Virus record (IMG/VR): IMGVR_UViG_2734482569_000014
From: a virus
Taxonomy: Duplodnaviria; Heunggongvirae; Uroviricota; Caudoviricetes
Reading direction: 5' to 3' (one strand)
Length of the DNA stretch: 40,719 nucleotides
Shown here piece by piece: positions 22,598 through 39,167 of the stretch. Position 1 is the stretch's first letter; each line of letters opens with the position of its first letter. Under the pieces are notes generated by a model that was given only the letters and a program-made list of their open reading frames with translations, was not told where the DNA came from and searched no databases. Position numbers and translations under genes: made by a program.

Positions 22598-23135
22598 ACA
22601 GCGAATCAGATCAAATAAAACGCACATTTGTTAACATTTACACAAAGTCTGCGTGGGATATTCTGAAAGAATATCCATAATGTGGAGAGAATCTATTGAA
22701 GTGCATGGTGCCGGGTGCCTCCCGGTGAACAAAATGTTCGTGATACCTGTCGGCGACAGAAAAGGTTAATGGTATCACCCCACCGCACAGGGGGATTCAC
22801 CATGCAGGAGTTTTCTTAGCAAACTCACTGCGCGCCCGGCAACTCCCAACCACATAAAATGCGGAGTTTGTGGCATTTATGCATATAACTCGCAGGAATT
22901 ATCTTAAAAAACTGATGTCGATCCGGATTAAAAAGAAGCAGGTCATCATCAGATGACTGGAAAAAAGGAAAACAAAAAATACTCATCATACAGTTTTGAT
23001 TGCAGGGATGAGCCTGCTATGCACAATATGCAGAATATAAGCAAGATAAAAATATGCAGGCATATTATTTCGGATCTTGTTATTAACACAACCTTTTTAA
23101 TAATCATTTGGCATACAATAAACCAGCCCAAAAAG

Positions 23136-30206: not shown

Positions 30207-30924
30207 TCGGACGCCAGCTCTCCCAGTTAAAATTCACCCATCGCCCGCCGTTCATGGTCATGCGATCCATAATCCGCTCGCCGAGCAATGTTTTCATGGC
30301 CTCATAGTTCAGGTTTGTCAGCATCCCCACGCTGCGCATCGACGCTGTCCGGCGATCAACAATCTGGTGCAGCACCACCTGCTCGTTTTTCGTCTCGCGC
30401 TGAATGCCAATTTCATCAAGAACCAGCAGATCCACTTCGCATAGTTCCCGCAAAAATTTTTCGCCTGACTGCCCATCGTCATAGCTGGCGTGCAGGGCAC
30501 TCATAACATCAGCCACGGTAACCACAATCACTGTCTGACCGTCTTTCAGCAGGCGATTCCCGATAGCTGCCGCTAAGTGGTTCTTCCCGGTACCAGGTTT
30601 TCCGCTGAACGCAAAATTTGTACACCCGGTCATCAGTTCATCAGCGATGGATTTCGCCTGACTCAACGCGTATCGCTGCGCTTCGTTCTGCACCTGGTAA
30701 TTCGAAAACGAGCATTTGCGGTGCAATGGCTGGATGCCAGAGCGATTCAGAATTTTTTCCACCCGCAACTGACGATTCTGACGGTTGATCTCCTCACAAC
30801 GTTTCTGGCCTTCGGAAAGTTGCCACTCGCGCCACTCCGCTACCGTCTTGAATGGCGCGGTTACATGTGACGGGGCCAGTCTGCGGATACGTTCAAGAAC
30901 GTCGCCTGTCGCAATATTTTTCAT
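30178..30924 (-). CDS. ydaV: DnaC/IstB-like replication helicase loader
   Basis: Walker [16 protein letters not shown] and Walker B LLVLDEIG; follows the O-like gene. Confidence 0.85.
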
Positions 30925-30930
30925 GGTCAG

Positions 30931-31788
30931 TTACCCCCTGAAGCCTGGCGGGATCGCACTATCCGGTAACGAGACGGTGTTAACCTGTCGGAGTAACGTC
31001 TCAGGTCGAACACCTTTCGGCGCGAACAAGCCCTGGTATTCATTGGCGATGCTGTGTCGAATCACCTGCTCAGGTGAAAAACCCTGCTGGCGGAATTTTT
31101 CCAGCTCCCGTATCGCCCCGTTAGCGCCCTGCTCCGTTCGAATCGGTTTTCGCAATGCCTGGCGAAATTCAACCCACTCACGCCAAAGCGAGACAGAAAT
31201 CCAGTTCGGCAAAGCAATATCCAGAGGGTCAAACTTTTTGACACCTCGATTCCCCCGGGGGGGATTTAGGGGGGGATCTGTTTTTAGATCTTTATCTGTA
31301 TCTTTATTAGTTGCCTTTGTGTTGACATCATGTTCAAACACCACTTCAACATCTGTTTGAACACCTGTTAAATTTCTCTCTTGTTTTGTTTGAACATCTG
31401 CTTCCTTTCTGCTTCTTCTGGCCTGAACAGATGCTTTTCCTGCGGCTGATTTTTTGGTTAATTTTTCCCTGACTGATGCCAGATCTTCCTCAATCCGAAG
31501 ATGCACCCATTCCTCGCCGTTATCGCAAAAAAACTCCTGCAAGGATGGTTCAACATCAGCCCATCGCTCGTTAGTCAGACGGGCAATTTTTGCCAGCCTG
31601 TTTTTAGGTATTGGCTTTCCTGTTTGCCAGTAATTGAACATCAGCAACAAATACGCACCATGCTCCTCTGCTGACAAATGCATGGTGTCAGCCAGGTAAT
31701 CAGCTATGTACAGTTGCATGTATGGTAATGCGGCCATAATTGCCCCGTATGATGCTGCCCGGTGGCTTAGAATAAGCACAAACAGCAT
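30931..31788 (-). CDS. ydaU: Replication initiation O-like protein (YdaU-like)
   Basis: 285 aa; position between YdaT-like and DnaC-like genes; same length as Rac YdaU as recalled. Confidence 0.65.
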   Translation of the reverse strand: MLFVLILSHRAASYGAIMAALPYMQLYIADYLADTMHLSAEEHGAYLLLMFNYWQTGKPIPKNRLAKIARLTNERWADVEPSLQEFFCDNGEEWVHLRIEEDLASVREKLTKKSAAGKASVQARRSRKEADVQTKQERNLTGVQTDVEVVFEHDVNTKATNKDTDKDLKTDPPLNPPRGNRGVKKFDPLDIALPNWISVSLWREWVEFRQALRKPIRTEQGANGAIRELEKFRQQGFSPEQVIRHSIANEYQGLFAPKGVRPETLLRQVNTVSLPDSAIPPGFRG

Positions 31789-31800
31789 GGAAACTTTTGC

Positions 31801-32223
31801 TTAATGAACAATGACAGAATCGTCGGAAGACCCGCCGCCGCTGAAATGCGCTTTCCGGTAAACGGCTTGGACTGCATCATCATGCGCATCAATTGCCGTA
31901 CTTAACGCTTCCTGCGCCGCCAGTAATGCACGGCGTTCCAGGGTATCGAAGATGCAGAGTCGGTGACGCAGCTCGCGCGGAAGGATTGCCAGAATTGCTG
32001 GGATCAGCTTCTGAATTTTTTCTCTTTGCGTTTTCGTTTCACCTTTCAACCAACGGTGATAGATATTCTGCTGATTATTCCAGTCCTTGCCTGGTACCAG
32101 GGGCAATTCGCCGCCCCCCTGGCGCAGATATTCTTCAGTAATGGCATTGGCTACCCATGCCTGCCCTTTTTCGGCTGCCAGGGCTAACAACACTGACTCG
32201 ATGTGCTCATGCTTGATTTTCAT
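31801..32223 (-). CDS. ydaT: YdaT-like protein
   Basis: 140 aa, same length and position as Rac YdaT (downstream of cro-like ydaS). Confidence 0.65.
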   Translation of the reverse strand: MKIKHEHIESVLLALAAEKGQAWVANAITEEYLRQGGGELPLVPGKDWNNQQNIYHRWLKGETKTQREKIQKLIPAILAILPRELRHRLCIFDTLERRALLAAQEALSTAIDAHDDAVQAVYRKAHFSGGGSSDDSVIVH

Positions 32224-32474
32224 GAATCAACTCCCATCAGCTTTTTCGTAGTAGTTTTATTTCTGCCAATAGTTAAAATTACATCAGCAGAAAATAATCC
32301 GTTTGATGCATGAGCGATTTTTTCAGCGTAATTTGTTTCGCCGGTATATTCTGTGCGAGGCAATTTTCCGTTATCCATCCATTTGTAGATTGCTCTTTGG
32401 CTGACACCACAAACGTCGGCCACAACAGAAACGCGAACAGTTTTGATTACATCTTCAAGTGTTTTCTGGTTCAT
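32220..32474 (-). CDS. ydaS: Cro-like HTH regulator (YdaS-like)
   Basis: Likely start MNQKTLEDVIK; HTH segment CGVSQRAIYKWMDNGKLP; divergent from racR. Confidence 0.6.
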   Translation of the reverse strand: MNQKTLEDVIKTVRVSVVADVCGVSQRAIYKWMDNGKLPRTEYTGETNYAEKIAHASNGLFSADVILTIGRNKTTTKKLMGVDS

Positions 32475-32481
32475 ATCACCC

Positions 32482-32533
32482 TCACAATGTGAACTTTGAG
32501 TACATGCTATAACAGAACTGACAGTACATTCAA
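32482..32533. promoter_or_regulatory. Immunity-region operators and divergent promoter region
   Basis: Palindrome TCACAATGTGA (32482..32492); AGTACAT copies at 32499..32505 and 32523..32529; minus-strand promoter -35 TTGAAT (32528..32533), -10 TATAGC (32506..32511). Confidence 0.35.
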
Positions 32534-32535
32534 GA

Positions 32536-32973
32536 GTGAATATCATTGAACTTATGGTTCATGAAGATAAAGCGCGTAAAGAGTTCGCCAGTAGGCTTGC
32601 GCTAGCCTGTGAAAACGCTGGTTATGAACAACATGGAAGGCAGGCAGAAATTGCCCGTCGAATGAAATTAACACCAAAAGCGGTTAGCAAATGGTTTAAT
32701 GGCGAAACAATTCCTCGCCGAGAGAAATTAAGGGAATTAGCAACACTCATTGGAACAACACCAACCTATCTTTTGGGAGAGGATACAGAAGAAAGTGGAC
32801 AGGTACGTTTCTATCAGGAGTTAAATCCAAGACAAAAAATCATCATTGACCTTCTGGACGAGCTCCCTGACAGTGAGACAGATGAACTTTTAAAAACTCT
32901 TGAGGAGAAAAAACAGAAGTACAATGCAATTTACGAAGAGCTAGCACGAAAGAAAAAACAAAAAGCCTCTTAA
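32536..32973 (+). CDS. racR: CI-like repressor (XRE-family HTH), RacR-like
   Basis: HTH segment QAEIARRMKLTPKAVSKWFNGETIP; divergent to cro-like gene; position as in Rac. Confidence 0.7.
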   Translation: MNIIELMVHEDKARKEFASRLALACENAGYEQHGRQAEIARRMKLTPKAVSKWFNGETIPRREKLRELATLIGTTPTYLLGEDTEESGQVRFYQELNPRQKIIIDLLDELPDSETDELLKTLEEKKQKYNAIYEELARKKKQKAS

Positions 32974-33263
32974 ACCAGCATAAATCCGGTAGCGTCCCCC
33001 TCCGGGTTTGTGCTTCACTTTATCCCATCTCATTTTTTTACACACAAAATGTACTTATAGTACTTTACATCAATGAACACAAAGTACATTATATACCTAC
33101 CAACCCACCCCGCCCCACAGAACGCAGGGCAATACTTCGAGTTACCAGGCAGTGGTCAGGGGTTAAGTAGCCAGCCCGAGGCGTATGAACATGACGGCAG
33201 GGTTCAGATTTTGCAGTGCAGCAGGTTTCAGTTCCGCCACCCGGCGTTAAGGGGAGAGATAAG

Positions 33264-33398
33264 ATGGTGCATTACGAAGTAGTTCAGTATTTGATGGATT
33301 GTTGCGGTATCACTTACAACCAGGCTGTGCAGGCTTTACGCAGCAACGACTGGGATCTCTGGCAGGCAGAAGTCGCTATACACAGCAACAAGATGTGA
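33264..33398 (+). CDS. ydaG: Small Rac protein YdaG-like (44 aa)
   Basis: MVHYEVVQYLMDCCGITYNQ... with AAGGGGAGAG SD; size matches Rac YdaG. Confidence 0.55.
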   Translation: MVHYEVVQYLMDCCGITYNQAVQALRSNDWDLWQAEVAIHSNKM

Positions 33399-33408
33399 GA
33401 TTCGCAAA

Positions 33409-33564
33409 ATGCAAAAAATCGACCTCGGCAACAACGAATCCCTGGTGTGCGGCGTGTTCCCCAACCAGGATGGAACGTTCACTGCCATGACGTATACCAA
33501 AAGCAAAACATTTAAAACCGAAACTGGTGCGCGCCGATGGTTGGAGAAGCACACAGTAAGCTAA
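33409..33564 (+). CDS. ydaF: Small Rac protein YdaF-like (51 aa)
   Basis: Hand translation MQKIDLGNNESLVCGVFPNQDGTFTAMTYTKSKTFKTETGARRWLEKHTVS; below track cutoff. Confidence 0.55.
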   Translation: MQKIDLGNNESLVCGVFPNQDGTFTAMTYTKSKTFKTETGARRWLEKHTVS

Positions 33565-34049
33565 CGATTAAAACGTCTACTCCTGCTGTTCCAGAATAAC
33601 TTCATAAAATGGGAGTATTTTTCGGTGACGAGATAATAAGAACAGTTTGCGCTATCACTCTGATGTTGAATGATGCCCTTCCGTTCTAATTTTTTCATAA
33701 CCGGGTTACGGCAAGGAGAAGTGATAATAAGATTTCCTGTTTTAAGGAAATCTTTAAATACAGCGATTTCTTTCTCAGATAAACGAAGCAATACTCGTTG
33801 CTCTGGTAGTAATGAATAATGCTTTTGAATATGTGCTCGCAATCTTGAGAAGGAAATGGCGACCACGAAAGAAAAGGCAAAAACGATAATCTGAAAGAGC
33901 CAAGGTATTTCAGTATAAGCATTGAATGCGACAGTAAACTCTTTCGGTATCAGCCAGAGAGTGAGACCAAAAATGATAATCGTATACATAAGTATTTCGA
34001 GTGGCTCGTTAGCAAAAAGTTTCAACAATGGAGTAAATACATCCAACAT
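33561..34049 (-). CDS. sieB: Superinfection exclusion protein B
   Basis: Likely start MLDVFTPLLKLFANEPLEILMYTIIIFGL giving 162 aa with N-terminal TM segments, as for Rac SieB. Confidence 0.75.
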   Translation of the reverse strand: MLDVFTPLLKLFANEPLEILMYTIIIFGLTLWLIPKEFTVAFNAYTEIPWLFQIIVFAFSFVVAISFSRLRAHIQKHYSLLPEQRVLLRLSEKEIAVFKDFLKTGNLIITSPCRNPVMKKLERKGIIQHQSDSANCSYYLVTEKYSHFMKLFWNSRSRRFNR

Positions 34050-34490
34050 ATCAATAACTCTCAACTGTAAGGGTATTGAAATGTTAACACAAGCTCTCGC
34101 TGTAGGGGTATAGCCGAGACCACCGAAGCCCGGAGGTGGTGAAATAAAACCGGGCACAACACGAAGGCGCATTTCCGATATCCATAAAGAGTCGGTCTTG
34201 TCTGTTAAATTTAAATGGTGGGAGTGCGCCTCCGGTTGTAAATAACGACATTGCTGTGTGTAGTCCTGGCGGCATCAGTTTTTTTCTTGAAGTTCGGCTG
34301 ATGTCCGCCCTTTTTAAAGTGAATTTTGTGATGCGGTGAATGCGGCTAAGCGCACGTGGCACAGTTAAAAGTCATGTTAGTCCTTATTGGTTTGGGTGGG
34401 AAAGCCGACTGTAATTGTTAACTGGTTGCAGTCACCTGGAGGCACCAGGCACCGCATCAACAAAGTTCATTTGTAAAAATGGAGATAATT

Positions 34491-34712
34491 ATGATTGCAC
34501 ATCACTTCGGAACTGATGAAATACCACGTCAGTGTGTGACTCCTGGCGATTATGTTCTTCATGAAGGCCGGACATATATTGCCTCGGCAAACAATATTAA
34601 AAAGCGAAAACTATATATTCGTAACCTGACCACAAAAACATGCATTACTGACCGCATGATTAAAGTCTTCCTCGGTCGTGATGGTTTACCTGTAAAGGCG
34701 GAGTCATGGTGA
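34491..34712 (+). CDS. kilR: FtsZ inhibitor KilR
   Basis: [35 protein letters not shown]..., 73 aa, matches Rac KilR as recalled. Confidence 0.75.
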
Positions 34713-34882
34713 TGACTAAGAAAATAAAATGTGCTTACCACCTTTGCAAAAAAGACGTTGAAGAAAGCAAAGCTATTGAAAGAATGCTTCACTTCATGCA
34801 CGGGATTTTATCAAAAGACGAACCGAGAAAATATTGCAGTGAAGCTTGTGCCGAAAAAGACCAGATGGCACATGAACTTTAA
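34712..34882 (+). CDS. ydaE: YdaE-like zinc-binding small protein (56 aa)
   Basis: Hand translation [56 protein letters not shown]; start overlaps kilR stop (TGATG). Confidence 0.55.
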   Translation: MTKKIKCAYHLCKKDVEESKAIERMLHFMHGILSKDEPRKYCSEACAEKDQMAHEL

Positions 34883-34956
34883 TTAATTGACTATTCGAAA
34901 CTGAATTTATGCCAGAAATGGCAGGTATTCGCTCAACCTTAATTAAGGAGAAAAAC

Positions 34957-35232
34957 ATGATTACCAATTATGAAGCCACTGTTGTAACTACCGATGACAT
35001 TGTTCACGAGGTGAATCTGGAAGGAAAGCGCATTGGCTACGTAATTAAAACAGAAAATAAAGAAACCCCATTCACTGTGGTTGATATCGATGGTCCATCA
35101 GGCAACGTAAAAACACTTGATGAAGGTGTCAAAAAAATGTGCCTGGTGCATATCGGAAAGAATCTGCCCGCAGAAAAAAAAGCCGAATTTCTGGCAACTC
35201 TAATTGCAATGAAATTAAAAGGTGAAATCTGA
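34957..35232 (+). CDS. racC: RacC
   Basis: MITNYEATVVTTDDIVHEV..., 91 aa; immediately upstream of recE. Confidence 0.7.
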   Translation: MITNYEATVVTTDDIVHEVNLEGKRIGYVIKTENKETPFTVVDIDGPSGNVKTLDEGVKKMCLVHIGKNLPAEKKAEFLATLIAMKLKGEI

Positions 35233-35333
35233 AAGAAATAGCCTGCGTATGGCGCAGGCTATGAACAGTGTGTATCCGGCAAGATCATTCACTGAACAAA
35301 ACGAATTTTAATCTGAGTTGAGGTTAAAAAACA

Positions 35334-37934
35334 ATGAGCACAAAACCACTCTTCCTGTTACGGAAAGCGAAAAAATCATCCGGTGAACCTGACGTCGTCC
35401 TGTGGGCAAGCAACGATTTTGAATCGACCTGTGCCACTCTGGACTACCTGATCGTTAAGTCAGGTAAAAAACTGAGCAGCTATTTTAAAGCTGTTGCCAC
35501 GAATTTTCCTGTCGTTAATGACCTGCCCGCTGAAGGTGAGATCGATTTTACCTGGAGTGAACGCTATCAACTCAGCAAAGACTCCATGACATGGGAACTA
35601 AAACCGGGAGCAGCACCAGACAACGCTCACTATCAAGGCAATACCAACGTCAACGGCGAAGACATGACTGAGATTGAGGAGAATATGCTACTCCCAATTT
35701 CTGGCCAGGAACTGCCCATTCGTTGGCTTGCTCAACACGGCAGCGAAAAACCGGTAACGCACGTTTCACGCGACGGACTCCAGGCATTACACATTGCTCG
35801 GGCTGAAGAACTACCGGCTGTTACTGCCCTGGCTGTTTCCCACAAAACCAGCCTGCTCGACCCGCTGGAAATTCGCGAACTCCACAAACTGGTTCGTGAC
35901 ACTGACAAAGTTTTCCCTAATCCTGGTAATTCAAACCTGGGACTGATAACTGCTTTTTTCGAAGCATACCTGAACGCTGACTACACCGATCGAGGACTGC
36001 TGACAAAAGAGTGGATGAAGGGTAATCGTGTTTCACACATCACTCGCACGGCTTCCGGTGCTAATGCTGGCGGCGGAAACCTCACCGATCGCGGCGAAGG
36101 TTTCGTACACGATCTGACGTCACTGGCGCGGGACGTAGCCACTGGCGTACTGGCCCGTTCAATGGATCTGGACATCTATAACCTTCATCCGGCACACGCT
36201 AAACGCATTGAGGAAATTATCGCTGAAAATAAACCGCCCTTTTCTGTTTTCCGCGACAAATTCATCACCATGCCTGGCGGGCTGGATTATTCCCGCGCCA
36301 TCGTGGTTGCGTCCGTAAAAGAAGCACCAATTGGGATCGAGGTCATCCCCGCGCACGTCACTGAATATCTGAACAAAGTACTGACTGAAACCGATCATGC
36401 CAACCCTGATCCGGAAATCGTGGATATTGCCTGCGGTCGCTCCTCTGCCCCGATGCCGCAGCGAGTAACAGAAGAAGGAAAACAGGATGATGAAGAAAAA
36501 CCGCAACCATCTGGAACAACGGCAGTTGAACAGGGAGAGGCTGAAACAATGGAACCGGACGCAACTGAACATCATCAGGACACGCAGCCGCTGGATGCTC
36601 AGTCACAGGTAAATTCTGTTGATGCGAAATATCAGGAACTGCGGGCAGAACTCCATGAAGCCCGGAAAAACATTCCATCAAAAAATCCTGTCGATGCCGA
36701 TAAATTGCTTGCTGCATCACGTGGTGAATTTGTTGACGGAATTAGCGACCCGAACGATCCGAAATGGGTAAAGGGGATCCAGACTCGCGATTGTGTGTAC
36801 CAGAACCAGCCAGAAACGGAAAAAACCAGCCCGGATATGAATCAACCTGAGCCAGTAGTGCAACAGGAACCGGAAATAGCCTGCAATGCCTGCGGCCAGA
36901 CTGGCGGGGATAACTGCCCTGACTGTGGTGCGGTGATGGGCGACGCAACATACCAGGAAACATTCGATGAAGAGAGTCAGGTTGAAGCTAAGGAAAATGA
37001 TCCGGAGGAAATGGAAGGCGCTGAACATCCGCACAATGAGAATGCTGGCAGCGATCCGCATCGCGATTGCAGTGATGAAACTGGCGAAGTCGCAGATCCC
37101 GTAATCGTAGAAGACATAGAGCCAGGTATTTATTACGGAATTTCGAATGAGAATTACCACGCGGGTCCCGGTGTCAGTAAGTCTCAGCTCGATGACATTG
37201 CTGATACTCCGGCACTGTATTTGTGGCGTAAAAATGCCCCCGTGGACACCACAAAGACAAAAACGCTCGATTTAGGAACCGCTTTCCACTGCCGGGTACT
37301 TGAGCCGGAAGAATTCAGTAACCGCTTTATCGTAGCACCTGAATTTAACCGCCGGACAAACTCCGGAAAAGAAGAAGAGAAAGCGTTTCTGAGGGAATGC
37401 GCAAGCACAGGAAAAACGGTTATCACTGCCGAAGAAGGCCGGAAAATTGAACTCATGTATCAGAGCGTTATGGCTTTGCCGCTGGGGCAATGGCTTGTTG
37501 AAAGCGCCGGACACGCTGAATCATCAATTTACTGGGAAGATCCTGAAACAGCAATTTTGTGTCGGTGCCGTCCGGACAAAATTATCCCTGAATTTCACTG
37601 GATCATGGACGTGAAAACTACGGCGGATATTCAACGATTCAAAACCGCTTATTACGACTACCGCTATCACGTTCAGGATGCATTCTACAGTGACGGTTAT
37701 GAAGCACAGTTTGGAGTGCAGCCAACTTTCGTTTTTCTGGTTGCCAGCACAACTATTGAATGCGGACGTTATCCGGTTGAAATTTTCATGATGGGCGAAG
37801 AAGCAAAACTGGCAGGTCAGCTGGAATATCACCGCAATCTGCGAACCCTGGCTGACTGCCTCAATACCGATGAATGGCCAGCTATTAAGACGTTATCACT
37901 GCCCCGCTGGGCTAAGGAATATGCAAATGACTAA
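35334..37934 (+). CDS. recE: Exodeoxyribonuclease VIII (RecE)
   Basis: 866 aa, same length as K-12 RecE; followed by overlapping recT. Confidence 0.9.
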
Positions 37935-38966: not shown

Positions 38967-39167
38967 ATGGAGGTGTTCATGTATAAAATTACCGCCACTA
39001 TTGAAAAGGAAGGTGGCACTCCTACTAACTGGACAAGATATTCAAAATCTAAACTAACGAAATCAGAATGCGAAAAAATGCTCTCAGGTAAAAAAGAAGC
39101 AGGCGTTTCCAGAGAGCAGAAAGTAAAACTGATAAATTTTAATTGCGAGAAACTTCAGTCCTCGTGA
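38967..39167 (+). CDS. ydaC: YdaC-like small protein
   Basis: MEVFMYKITATIEKEGGTPTNW...; track ORF extends upstream to 38907 inside ralR in another frame. Confidence 0.5.
   Translation: MEVFMYKITATIEKEGGTPTNWTRYSKSKLTKSECEKMLSGKKEAGVSREQKVKLINFNCEKLQSS

Follow-up and report, generated by a model that had tools for sequence, protein, structure and literature searches.

Which repressor, if any, acts at the AGTACAT repeats that flank a repressor gene in the immunity region of a Rac-family prophage? The initial annotation of the locus, which lies in a 40.7-kb window (the whole stretch of 40,719 nucleotides analysed here, IMG/VR record IMGVR_UViG_2734482569_000014), had read the gene as racR, its divergent neighbour as ydaS, and the repeats as operators resembling OR and OL of lambda, through which one repressor could control both early arms. 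We examined the boundaries of the region, the repressor, the repeats and their counterparts in related phages. Our data support OR/OL-like operators on both sides of the gene, by homology to the operators of 933W, which have been studied experimentally, and of HK022 in sequence, spacing and position and by conservation, but these are not the operators of RacR.

Results

A block without homology to K-12 Rac

A blastn comparison with K-12 Rac gave 99.4% identity at 30407-32229 and 33098-35720 and no match between, leaving 32230-33097 as the sole part of the region without homology to K-12 Rac (Table 1). Since the K-12 homology ends at 32229 and restarts at 33098, the repressor and cro genes carry both operator clusters with them, and about 5 nt separate the PL -10 from the left junction (33097/33098). 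In phage Tritos the same block, OR and OL included, is bordered by other genes (Rha, a replisome organiser and dicB). Repressor, cro and both operator sets thus form one exchangeable unit, as in lambdoid immunity modules, and the window holds a Rac-family prophage of full size in which an HK022/933W-type cassette has taken the place of the immunity region. Of 5426 complete E. coli genomes, 1047 (~19%) carry the cassette, at 97.6-99.7% identity, O157:H7 and O104:H4 strains among them.

Table 1. Features of the cassette and its edges, in window coordinates.
Feature	Position	Strand	Description
YdaT box	32213..32230		TTGATTTTCATGAATCAA; covers ydaT start codon and right-hand cassette edge
cro-like gene	32220..32474	-	84 aa; occupies the K-12 ydaS position, not a ydaS orthologue
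Swapped immunity cassette	32230..33097		cro-like gene, OR, repressor gene, terminator-like hairpin, OL/PL; bounded by blastn
OR1 (predicted)	32489..32505		GTGAACTTTGAGTACAT; core GAAC-N5-GTAC at 32491-32503
Predicted PR	32506..32533	-	-35 TTGAAT (32533-32528), 16-nt spacer, TG-extended -10 TATAGC (32511-32506)
OR2 (predicted)	32513..32529		CAGAACTGACAGTACAT; core 32515-32527; 24 bp from OR1
Predicted PRM	32518..32546	+	CTGACA-N17-TATCAT; promoter scan 10/12
OR3 (predicted)	32546..32562		TTGAACTTATGGTTCAT; core 32548-32560; 33 bp from OR2, centred on ATG 32554
Repressor gene	32554..32973	+	139 aa; start codon as in RefSeq
Hairpin	32977..33014	+	after repressor stop codon; RNA fold -19.4 kcal/mol, z = -5.3
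OL2 (predicted)	33049..33065		ATGTACTTATAGTACTT; core GTAC-N5-GTAC 33051-33063, perfect dyad; abuts PL -35
Predicted PL	33064..33092	+	TTTACA (33064-33069)-N17-CATTAT (33087-33092); promoter scan 9/12
OL1 (predicted)	33073..33089		ATGAACACAAAGTACAT; core 33075-33087; 24 bp from OL2

A short repressor with an HK022-like recognition helix

The 139-aa repressor is 100% identical to the annotated CI of Tritos, a phage with a 46-kb genome. Its N-terminal domain is 62-71% identical to those of the Kp4864-1 and Omnitron CIs, 47.5% to that of HK022 CI and 50.7% to that of a 933W-type CI (HTH identities of 47.5-51%, computed over residues 1-73 or 4-102). The residues that contact bases in 933W (K42, K46 and E51) are conserved, P takes the place of 933W S41, as it does in HK022, Kp4864-1 and Omnitron, and the intact recognition helix is almost the same as in HK022 (TPKAVSKWFNGE here, TPKAISKWFNGE in HK022). 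By the homology of its HTH domain, the repressor appears to belong with the HK022/933W-type operator set.

Its C-terminal part is short and helical and matches phrog_5736. Pfam returned only HTH_3 and HTH_31 for the repressor and no S24 peptidase domain, a domain visible in the HK022 and 933W-type CIs (by alignment) and in the Kp4864-1 and Omnitron CIs (in full-length ORFs). With the C-terminal S24 peptidase domain absent, the protein is not a LexA-like (S24) lambdoid CI; it consists of an HK022/933W-type HTH domain linked to a short helical C-terminal part. The S24-type C-terminal domain mediates dimerisation and cooperativity in HK022 and lambda CI. Having no such domain, the repressor is presumably insensitive to RecA. 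A single-sequence AlphaFold2 model was poor (mean pLDDT 53) and was taken for helix positions only, and a PDB sequence search gave weak matches only, to the N-terminal domains of P22 C2 and 434.

Five operator-like dyads around the repressor gene

The positions reported by the initial annotation are exact: AGTACAT lies at 32499-32505, 32523-32529 and 33083-33089 on the plus strand and, inverted as ATGTACT, at 33049-33055; the palindrome GTACT-TAT-AGTAC spans 33051-33063 and the hexamer TTTACA 33064-33069. The repeats had been described as half-sites. AGTACAT does belong to operator-like sites, but it is not a free-standing half-site: it is the consensus (better) arm plus flank of 15-17 bp pseudo-palindromes of the form G(A/T)AC-N5-GT(A/T)C, in which the other arm is usually GAAC. 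The original set was also incomplete, as a third OR site on the repressor start codon (TGAACTTATGGTTCA), which carries no AGTACAT, had been overlooked. The five sites share the consensus (A)T-G(A/T)AC-T-N3-A-GT(A/T)C-A(T), and as 15-bp dyads all of them fit GWAC-N5-GTWC perfectly; at position 6 of the left arm four sites have T and OL1 has A (GAACA). For 933W, a 15-bp dyad has been described in which positions 2-5 (G-(A/T)-A-C) are conserved and position 6 is T or C (PMC3317979). An unbiased repeat search returned the sites as a single in-register 22-nt family with spacings of 24 and 560 bp, which matched the fourth site in inverted orientation.

On the rightward side, the OR centres fall at 32497, 32521 and 32554, the last on the ATG itself, giving a three-site OR. 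OR1 lies just downstream of the PR -10, covering the expected PR transcription start, and aligns with OR1 of HK022 and of 933W. OR2 takes up the PR spacer, and the PRM -35 hexamer, CTGACA, falls within the site. OR3 is positionally homologous to the annotated OR3 of 933W (CGTACTCATGGTTCA), which covers the cI ATG. The candidate PR, placed relative to the AGTACAT motifs as first described, would drive the cro-like gene and then ydaT, ydaU and ydaV. It was not called by a consensus promoter scan; its -10, TATAGC, is non-consensus, missing the final T. HK022 has TTGACT-N16-CATAAT at the same alignment columns. The product of the cro-like gene is 62% identical to HK022 Cro and is named a helix-turn-helix transcriptional regulator in RefSeq. 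The predicted PRM, which scored 10/12, has the same geometry in HK022 (CTGATA-N17-TATAGT) and in the 933W type (CTGAAA-N16-TAGTAT). Its -10 ends 7 nt before the repressor ATG, so that, from the transcription start expected at this spacing, the repressor mRNA is probably leaderless; the loopometer supplement places a 'PM -10' label just upstream of the HK022 cI ATG.

On the leftward side, the OL pair brackets the -35 of PL and fills its spacer, with OL1 in the spacer and overlapping the -10. OL2 aligns with HK022 ATGTACTATTGGTACTT and with 933W OL2. PL points toward ydaG, ydaF, kilR, racC, recE and recT, and its alignment columns read TTTACA / CATCAT in HK022 and TTGATA / CATTAT in the 933W type; Omnitron was aligned over this region as well. 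At up to one mismatch, we found neither a third OL site (OL3) nor a counterpart of the HK022 far-right operator. The hairpin that follows the repressor gene has an invariant stem and a loop that varies among strains, and is tentatively regarded as a probable terminator of the repressor transcript. It was detected by folding only; a terminator scan called nothing because the loop exceeds 8 nt and the T-run is not adjacent.

Taken together, the sites overlap the promoter of the rightward arm (to the cro-like gene) and that of the leftward arm (to ydaG-recE), as at lambda OR/OL. We favour, at a probability of about 0.88, the reading that the five sites are operators of the cassette's own HK022/933W-type repressor, which would silence both early arms.

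Conservation of the sites among relatives

A scan of genome contigs for relatives yielded a single identical locus, in Shigella flexneri, and the diversity sample was therefore taken from a phage collection. Tritos, Kp4864-1, Omnitron, HK022, Si3 and the 933W-type phage all repeat the OR layout: a first interval of 24 bp, a second of 32-33 bp, and OR3 placed on the cI ATG. The OL pair is 24 bp apart in Tritos, Omnitron, HK022 and Si3 and 22 bp apart in the 933W type; none was found within the 4.3 kb examined of Kp4864-1. Invariant columns made up 19/24 of the OR core columns and 12/68 of the others (Fisher p = 1e-7), and 14/16 of the OL core columns and 15/72 of the others (Fisher p = 9e-7), a conservation that partly reflects common descent, as the sample consists of six phage lineages plus near-identical E. 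coli copies. The OR2 core (G46-T56 in alignment columns) is invariant across the six phages. Among eight copies of the cassette, the cores are free of variation, which is confined to site centres and flanks: the OR1 core is unchanged, and OL2 combines an invariant core with five alleles of its central 5 bp, with T or C at position 6.

These patterns bear on whether the sites could be relics that the truncated repressor no longer uses, or that only the Cro-like protein uses, silencing then depending on something else. The missing C-terminal domain, the weak PR -10 and the cryptic state of many Rac-family prophages would agree with such decay. However, the short repressor belongs to a phage protein family of its own (phrog_5736) and serves as annotated CI of Tritos, its recognition helix is unimpaired, and the 1047 genomes retain the cassette at high identity. 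Moreover, invariant cores with hypervariable centres are the pattern of purifying selection on contacts. Decay is thus an unlikely explanation.

Promoter elements and YdaT

It is less probable still that the shared sequence represents duplicated promoter elements or sites for the CII-like YdaT rather than repressor operators. Hexamers of PR, PL and PRM do overlap or abut the repeats, and K-12 YdaT also protects the ydaS promoter region (PMC11879457), but neither the -35 nor the -10 hexamers of PL and PR include the conserved GTAC/GAAC cores. The YdaT box has been defined experimentally (PMC11879457, PMC9986795). TTGATT-N6-AATCAA is unrelated in sequence to the repeats and has a sole perfect match in the window, at the ydaT start; YdaT boxes were therefore rejected as an explanation of the repeats. 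The box is a CII-like input to the same switch.

The repressor is not RacR

The gene occupies the racR position between ydaT/ydaS-like genes and ydaG, with the flanks nearly identical to K-12 Rac, but neither original gene name holds. BLASTP against K-12 RacR gave 12/33 identities (36%) in the HTH only (E = 1e-4), and the cro-like protein is unrelated to K-12 YdaS, with just a 6/18-residue match. The published footprinted RacR operator consists of (T/A)TAGGC-n3-GCCTA(T/A) inverted repeats (PMC9638921). This motif was found in neither intergenic region, and its single match in the cassette, with two mismatches, is inside the repressor gene. At up to two mismatches the window contains 4 matches against 10.7 expected, compared with 6 against 1.3 at the K-12 locus. 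As the protein is not an orthologue of RacR (b1356) and the operator motif is missing, we dropped the RacR assignment and membership of the RacR regulon; that the sites are RacR operators is extremely improbable.

In K-12 Rac itself, RacR-type repeats lie downstream of racR at the equivalent place, flanking TTGACA-N17-TATAGT, and a PL/OL is predicted there. RacR depletion derepresses both arms in K-12, and the PL/OL analogue of CP-933P has been tested with reporters (PMC8630535).

Repeat statistics

The repeats might instead be functionless copies of a short and partly palindromic word that arose by chance in AT-rich DNA between genes. The bare 7-mer is indeed not enriched: AGTACAT occurs 5 times across the whole window, where 3.5 copies are expected, and as many or more appear in 26 of 100 shuffles. 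Inverted copies also arise easily because GTAC is self-complementary. Since whole-window enrichment of the 7-mer was not significant, clustering and the extended motif were used for testing. The non-random aspect of AGTACAT is its clustering, with 4 copies in the two intergenic stretches (203 bp) against 0.037 expected from composition, and a probability of 5.5e-5 that, of 5 copies placed uniformly, 4 or more would land inside a 625-bp span.

The fuller 13-bp motif, GWAC-N5-GTWC, was derived independently, from the operators annotated in the 933W-type record; the deposited OR1-3 and OL1-2 yield this pattern, 4 of the 5 perfectly, with OR2 ending in GTTT. The window contains 6 perfect matches against 1.22 expected, a count reached by 0 of 100 shuffles, and 5 of the 6 sit in one 600-bp region around the repressor gene. 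The sixth, at 22727 inside an STnc100 sRNA match, was taken as the single expected chance match. Together with the identical spacing and position in five other phages, and cores that are conserved while flanks diverge, these counts leave functionless chance copies with next to no likelihood.

Discussion

Here, we describe an ordinary, previously uncharacterised example of a well-known phage switch type. As we picture the switch from its sequence, dimers of the 139-aa CI-like repressor would bind the five operators, and the Cro-like protein, by lambdoid analogy, may bind them as well. Bound at OR1 and OR2, which cover the PR start site and spacer, the repressor would shut off cro, ydaT and the replication genes. 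OR2 also overlaps the PRM -35, and at OR3, on the start site and ATG of the probably leaderless mRNA, the repressor would autoregulate its own gene. At OL2 and OL1 it would shut off the ydaG-kilR-recET arm. A single repressor blocking PR and PL would in this way silence the two early arms. With 24 bp within each pair and ~560 bp from OR to OL, the sites are spaced such that pairwise cooperativity and looping would be possible, as shown for HK022 CI, which binds adjacent operators cooperatively and loops OL to OR (PMC8053113). The repressor of 933W, the best-studied relative, binds non-cooperatively (PMC3317979), and spacing alone is therefore no proof of cooperativity.

Among named systems, HK022 has OR sites at the same 24- and 33-bp intervals, the third on the cI ATG, along with a homologous Cro and CI N-terminal domain and a near-identical OL/PL (ATGTACT..GTACTTTACA..ATGAAC..AGTACAT). 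However, HK022 CI carries an S24 peptidase/oligomerisation domain in place of the short helical C-terminus, OR and OL are ~700 bp apart, and the neighbours are cII and nun rather than the Rac genes ydaT and ydaG. The 933W system resembles the cassette in its 15-bp dyad with G(A/T)AC cores, the 24 bp between OR1 and OR2, the placement of OR3 at the cI ATG, an OL of just two sites that bracket the -35 of PL, and the PL -10 CATTAT. It differs in that position 1 is mostly C (T or A here), residue 41 of CI is S rather than P, an S24 domain is present in CI, and cI is separated from OL by stk.

The cassette resembles lambda in that the predicted PR and PRM diverge and share three operators, further operators lie at PL on the far side of the repressor gene, the repressor mRNA is probably leaderless and a single repressor would control both early arms. 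The lambda operator sequence is unrelated, and lambda has three OL sites instead of two. In lambda OR2 abuts the PRM -35, whereas here it overlaps that hexamer, and OR3 here is placed at the start site; rex genes and a RecA-cleavable domain are both missing from the cassette. RacR (K-12 Rac; O1-O3, TAGGC-n3-GCCTA) and PaaR2/PL933P (CP-933P) come from the same prophage family and the same ydaT-ydaG slot and follow the same logic, with an operator over the repressor ATG, but their repressors and operator sequences are unrelated to those described here and represent alternative immunity cassettes.

The main value of these findings is a correction and an aid to annotation. Rac-family prophages carry at least three unrelated immunity cassettes, RacR, PaaR2 and the HK022 type, and results on RacR essentiality, the RacR operator and C-protein cross-talk are not transferable to the ~19% of complete E. 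coli genomes with the present cassette. The operator consensus and layout predict PR, PRM and PL for cassette-bearing prophages and for phage Tritos. It is possible, although unlikely, that the short repressor might also occupy the very similar operators of HK022-type and 933W-type (Stx) phages, whether resident or incoming, leading to cross-immunity or, because it cannot be cleaved, to damped SOS induction of Shiga-toxin prophages. The repressor is a natural CI variant with HK022-type DNA recognition and no SOS-cleavable domain, and offers a convenient case for studying the induction of such prophages and their possible interference with Stx phages relying on similar operators.

Results

A Rac-family prophage of full size occupies the window, running from structural genes at one end to recE, recT, ralR and the integrase gene at the other. 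Comparison with K-12 Rac gave 99.4% identity over both 30407-32229 (ydaV, ydaU and ydaT; 139 of 140 YdaT residues are identical) and 33098-35720 (ydaG, ydaF, sieB, kilR, racC and recE), and found no K-12 Rac counterpart for the 868 bp between them (32230-33097). The initial annotation took the two genes there for racR and ydaS. This attribution to RacR is wrong: the "racR" product matches RacR over 33 HTH residues only, and the divergent gene product is unrelated to the K-12 YdaS protein, showing instead 62% identity to HK022 Cro. The repressor matches the CI annotated in Escherichia phage Tritos at 100% identity, and its N-terminal domain is 71%, 62%, 50.7% and 47.5% identical to CI of Citrobacter phage Omnitron, Klebsiella phage Kp4864-1, the 933W-type immunity region and HK022, respectively. 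The CI and Cro homology and the gap in K-12 Rac therefore identify the region as a heteroimmune HK022/933W-type cassette in a Rac backbone.

At thresholds of at least 80% coverage (identities 97.6-99.7%), the cassette was found in 1047 of 5426 complete E. coli genomes, including O157:H7 and O104:H4 strains, and also in a Shigella flexneri genome. Such a swap explains the strains of an earlier survey that carry ydaT but in which racR, or the intergenic DNA between racR and ydaS, is missing (PMC5700373). The ydaT start codon is covered by a perfect YdaT box that sits exactly on the cassette's right-hand junction, and the only base to differ in the K-12 box is the one past that junction. Elsewhere in the backbone, a full-length RalA antitoxin sRNA adjoins ralR as in K-12 Rac, and the identical locus L002 has a KilA-N domain gene ~5 kb from the repressor.

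The 933W site is described by the Koudelka laboratory as a 15-bp dyad, with G-(A/T)-A-C conserved at positions 2-5 of each arm and T or C at position 6 (PMC3317979). The pattern GWAC-N5-GTWC, derived solely from the five annotated 933W-type operators, matched the window perfectly six times (1.22 expected; 0 of 100 shuffles reached six). Five matches lie inside the cassette (32491, 32515, 32548, 33051 and 33075), with site centres 24 and 33 bp apart in OR and 24 bp apart in OL. The sixth, inside an STnc100 sRNA match downstream of a Q-like gene, is probably the one expected by chance. In the cro-like start codon region, a short sequence repeats the OR3 right arm, TTATGGTTCAT, as an isolated half-site without a partner arm.

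Features of the cassette and its surroundings, with 933W-type operators as annotated by the depositor (GenBank) and roles suggested by position
Feature	Position	Sequence or property	933W-type operator	Putative role
STnc100 match (Rfam)	22649-22835 (-)
Sixth pattern match	22727-22739
YdaT box	32213-32230	TTGATTTTCATGAATCAA
Isolated half-site	32464-32474	TTCTGGTTCAT
OR1 (predicted)	32489-32505	GTGAACTTTGAGTACAT	CGTACTTTCAGTACG	Would cover PR start
OR2 (predicted)	32513-32529	CAGAACTGACAGTACAT	TGAACTGAAAGTTTT	Would occupy PR spacer and include PRM -35
PRM candidate	32518-32546 (+)	CTGACA-N17-TATCAT
OR3 (predicted)	32546-32562	TTGAACTTATGGTTCAT	CGTACTCATGGTTCA, over cI ATG	Would cover PRM start and repressor ATG
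Repressor gene	32554-32973	139 aa; RefSeq start ATG 32554
Hairpin	32977-33014	-19.4 kcal/mol, z = -5.3		Probable terminator
OL2 (predicted)	33049-33065	ATGTACTTATAGTACTT	CGTACCAATAGTTCT	Would lie next to PL -35
PL candidate	33064-33092 (+)	TTTACA-N17-CATTAT
OL1 (predicted)	33073-33089	ATGAACACAAAGTACAT	TCGAACTATTGGTTC	Would occupy PL spacer
RalA sRNA	38985-39163 (-)	Rfam RF02694, 225 bits
K-12 Rac repeats, between racR and ydaG	L001 (K-12 Rac locus) 2631-2668 = NC_000913 ~1419630-1419667	TAGGCTATGCCTA, TAGGTAATGCCTA

AGTACAT had been read as the operator half-site, and its positions (32499, 32523 and 33083 on the plus strand, 33049 on the minus strand) are exact, as are those of the palindrome GTACT-TAT-AGTAC (33051-33063) and the TTTACA hexamer (33064-33069). 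AGTACAT is not over-represented across the 40.7 kb (5 found, 3.5 expected), but four copies fall in intergenic stretches totalling 203 bp (base composition would give 0.037), and random placement of five copies would bring four or more of them inside 625 bp with a probability of 5.5e-5. Its non-randomness is thus one of clustering, not of overall count. An unbiased repeat search placed three sites in a single 22-nt family, in register at spacings of 24 and 560 bp, and paired the fourth as an inverted copy. The half-site definition itself does not hold: AGTACAT is the better-conserved arm of four pseudo-palindromes, and the fifth site, OR3, which lacks it, was overlooked.

The pattern, its spacing and the placement of OR3 on the cI ATG recur in Tritos and five other phages. 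OR spacings of 24 and 33 bp with an OL pair 24 bp apart are found in Tritos, Omnitron and HK022, the last having an extra site ~270 bp beyond OR, consistent with its published far operator (PMC8053113). The spacings are 24 and 32 bp in Salmonella phage Si3 (OL pair, 24 bp) and the 933W-type region (OL pair, 22 bp), and 24 and 33 bp in Kp4864-1, with no OL found in the 4.3 kb examined. When the eight specified positions per site were compared with other columns across these phages, invariant columns made up 19 of 24 versus 12 of 68 in the OR alignment (Fisher p = 1e-7) and 14 of 16 versus 15 of 72 in the OL alignment (p = 9e-7). No core position varies among eight copies of the cassette; the flanks do. 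The OL2 centre (5 bp within 33051-33063; window versus cassette loci L004 and L010-L014) has five alleles in eight copies (T-TAT-A, T-AAA-A, C-AAA-A, T-AAA-T and T-TAA-A) between constant GTAC arms, in cassettes otherwise 98-99% identical, and this hypervariability may tune operator affinity.

A consensus scan called the PRM and PL candidates, whose hexamers align with those of HK022 and the 933W-type region. The PRM candidate ends 7 nt upstream of the repressor ATG, without a visible Shine-Dalgarno sequence, and its transcript is therefore predicted to be leaderless; a "PM -10" label stands immediately upstream of the HK022 cI ATG in the supplement of the loopometer paper. The minus-strand PR candidate, TTGAAT-N16-TATAGC with a TG extension, aligns with HK022 TTGACT-N16-CATAAT; it has a weak -10 and went uncalled in the scan. 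The PL -10 is followed ~5 nt later by the left cassette junction (33097/33098), and therefore the promoter and operators are cassette-specific while the ydaG-recET arm is common with K-12. The hairpin after the repressor stop codon, probably the terminator of its transcript, has an invariant stem and a loop that varies among strains; a simple scan did not call it.

Discussion

Homology, architecture, conservation and the cassette boundaries all support the OR/OL reading of the initial annotation, with a CI-type protein replacing RacR as the repressor. Read from its sequence, the locus is a new, as yet uncharacterised member of the HK022/933W-type lambdoid switches, with predicted operators.

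Contacts of 933W CI are modelled via S41, K42, K46 and E51, and alanine at S41 or K46 impairs specific binding (PMC3317979). K42, K46 and E51 are retained here, and S41 is replaced by P, as in HK022. Kp4864-1 and Omnitron share the recognition helix, TPKAVSKWFNGE, exactly, and that of HK022, TPKAISKWFNGE, shows one conservative change. Unlike its HK022 and 933W-type relatives, the repressor is short, with no S24 peptidase domain found in its 139 aa; its C-terminal 60 residues match phrog_5736, a phage family of short regulators. A single-sequence AlphaFold model had low confidence. A protein of this predicted composition cannot be inactivated by the usual RecA-stimulated autocleavage, and we raise the question of whether prophage induction may proceed via an antirepressor. 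Cooperativity and OL-OR looping have been shown for HK022 CI (PMC8053113) and are absent for 933W CI (PMC3317979). Because these two differ and the repressor here lacks the S24 domain, neither property should be presumed.

The locus helps annotation and is only modestly surprising. In K-12 Rac, the equivalent spot past racR contains a pair of RacR-type inverted repeats 25 bp apart, the first perfect and the second with one mismatch. They flank TTGACA-N17-TATAGT, aimed at ydaG directly before the shared sequence starts, and together these elements are predicted to form PL/OL. In the Rac literature searched, the racR-ydaS intergenic region is the sole place where RacR operators are described. 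When RacR is depleted or interfered with, ydaG, ydaF, kilR, racC and recET are derepressed along with ydaST (bioRxiv 10.64898/2026.09.06.749655; PMC6765115). In CP-933P, a PL/OL analogue is repressed by PaaR2 and YdaS (PMC8630535). The K-12 Rac and CP-933P cases thus indicate that a repressor gene flanked by operators on either side is the rule in the Rac prophage family, in which each cassette has its own operator sequence.
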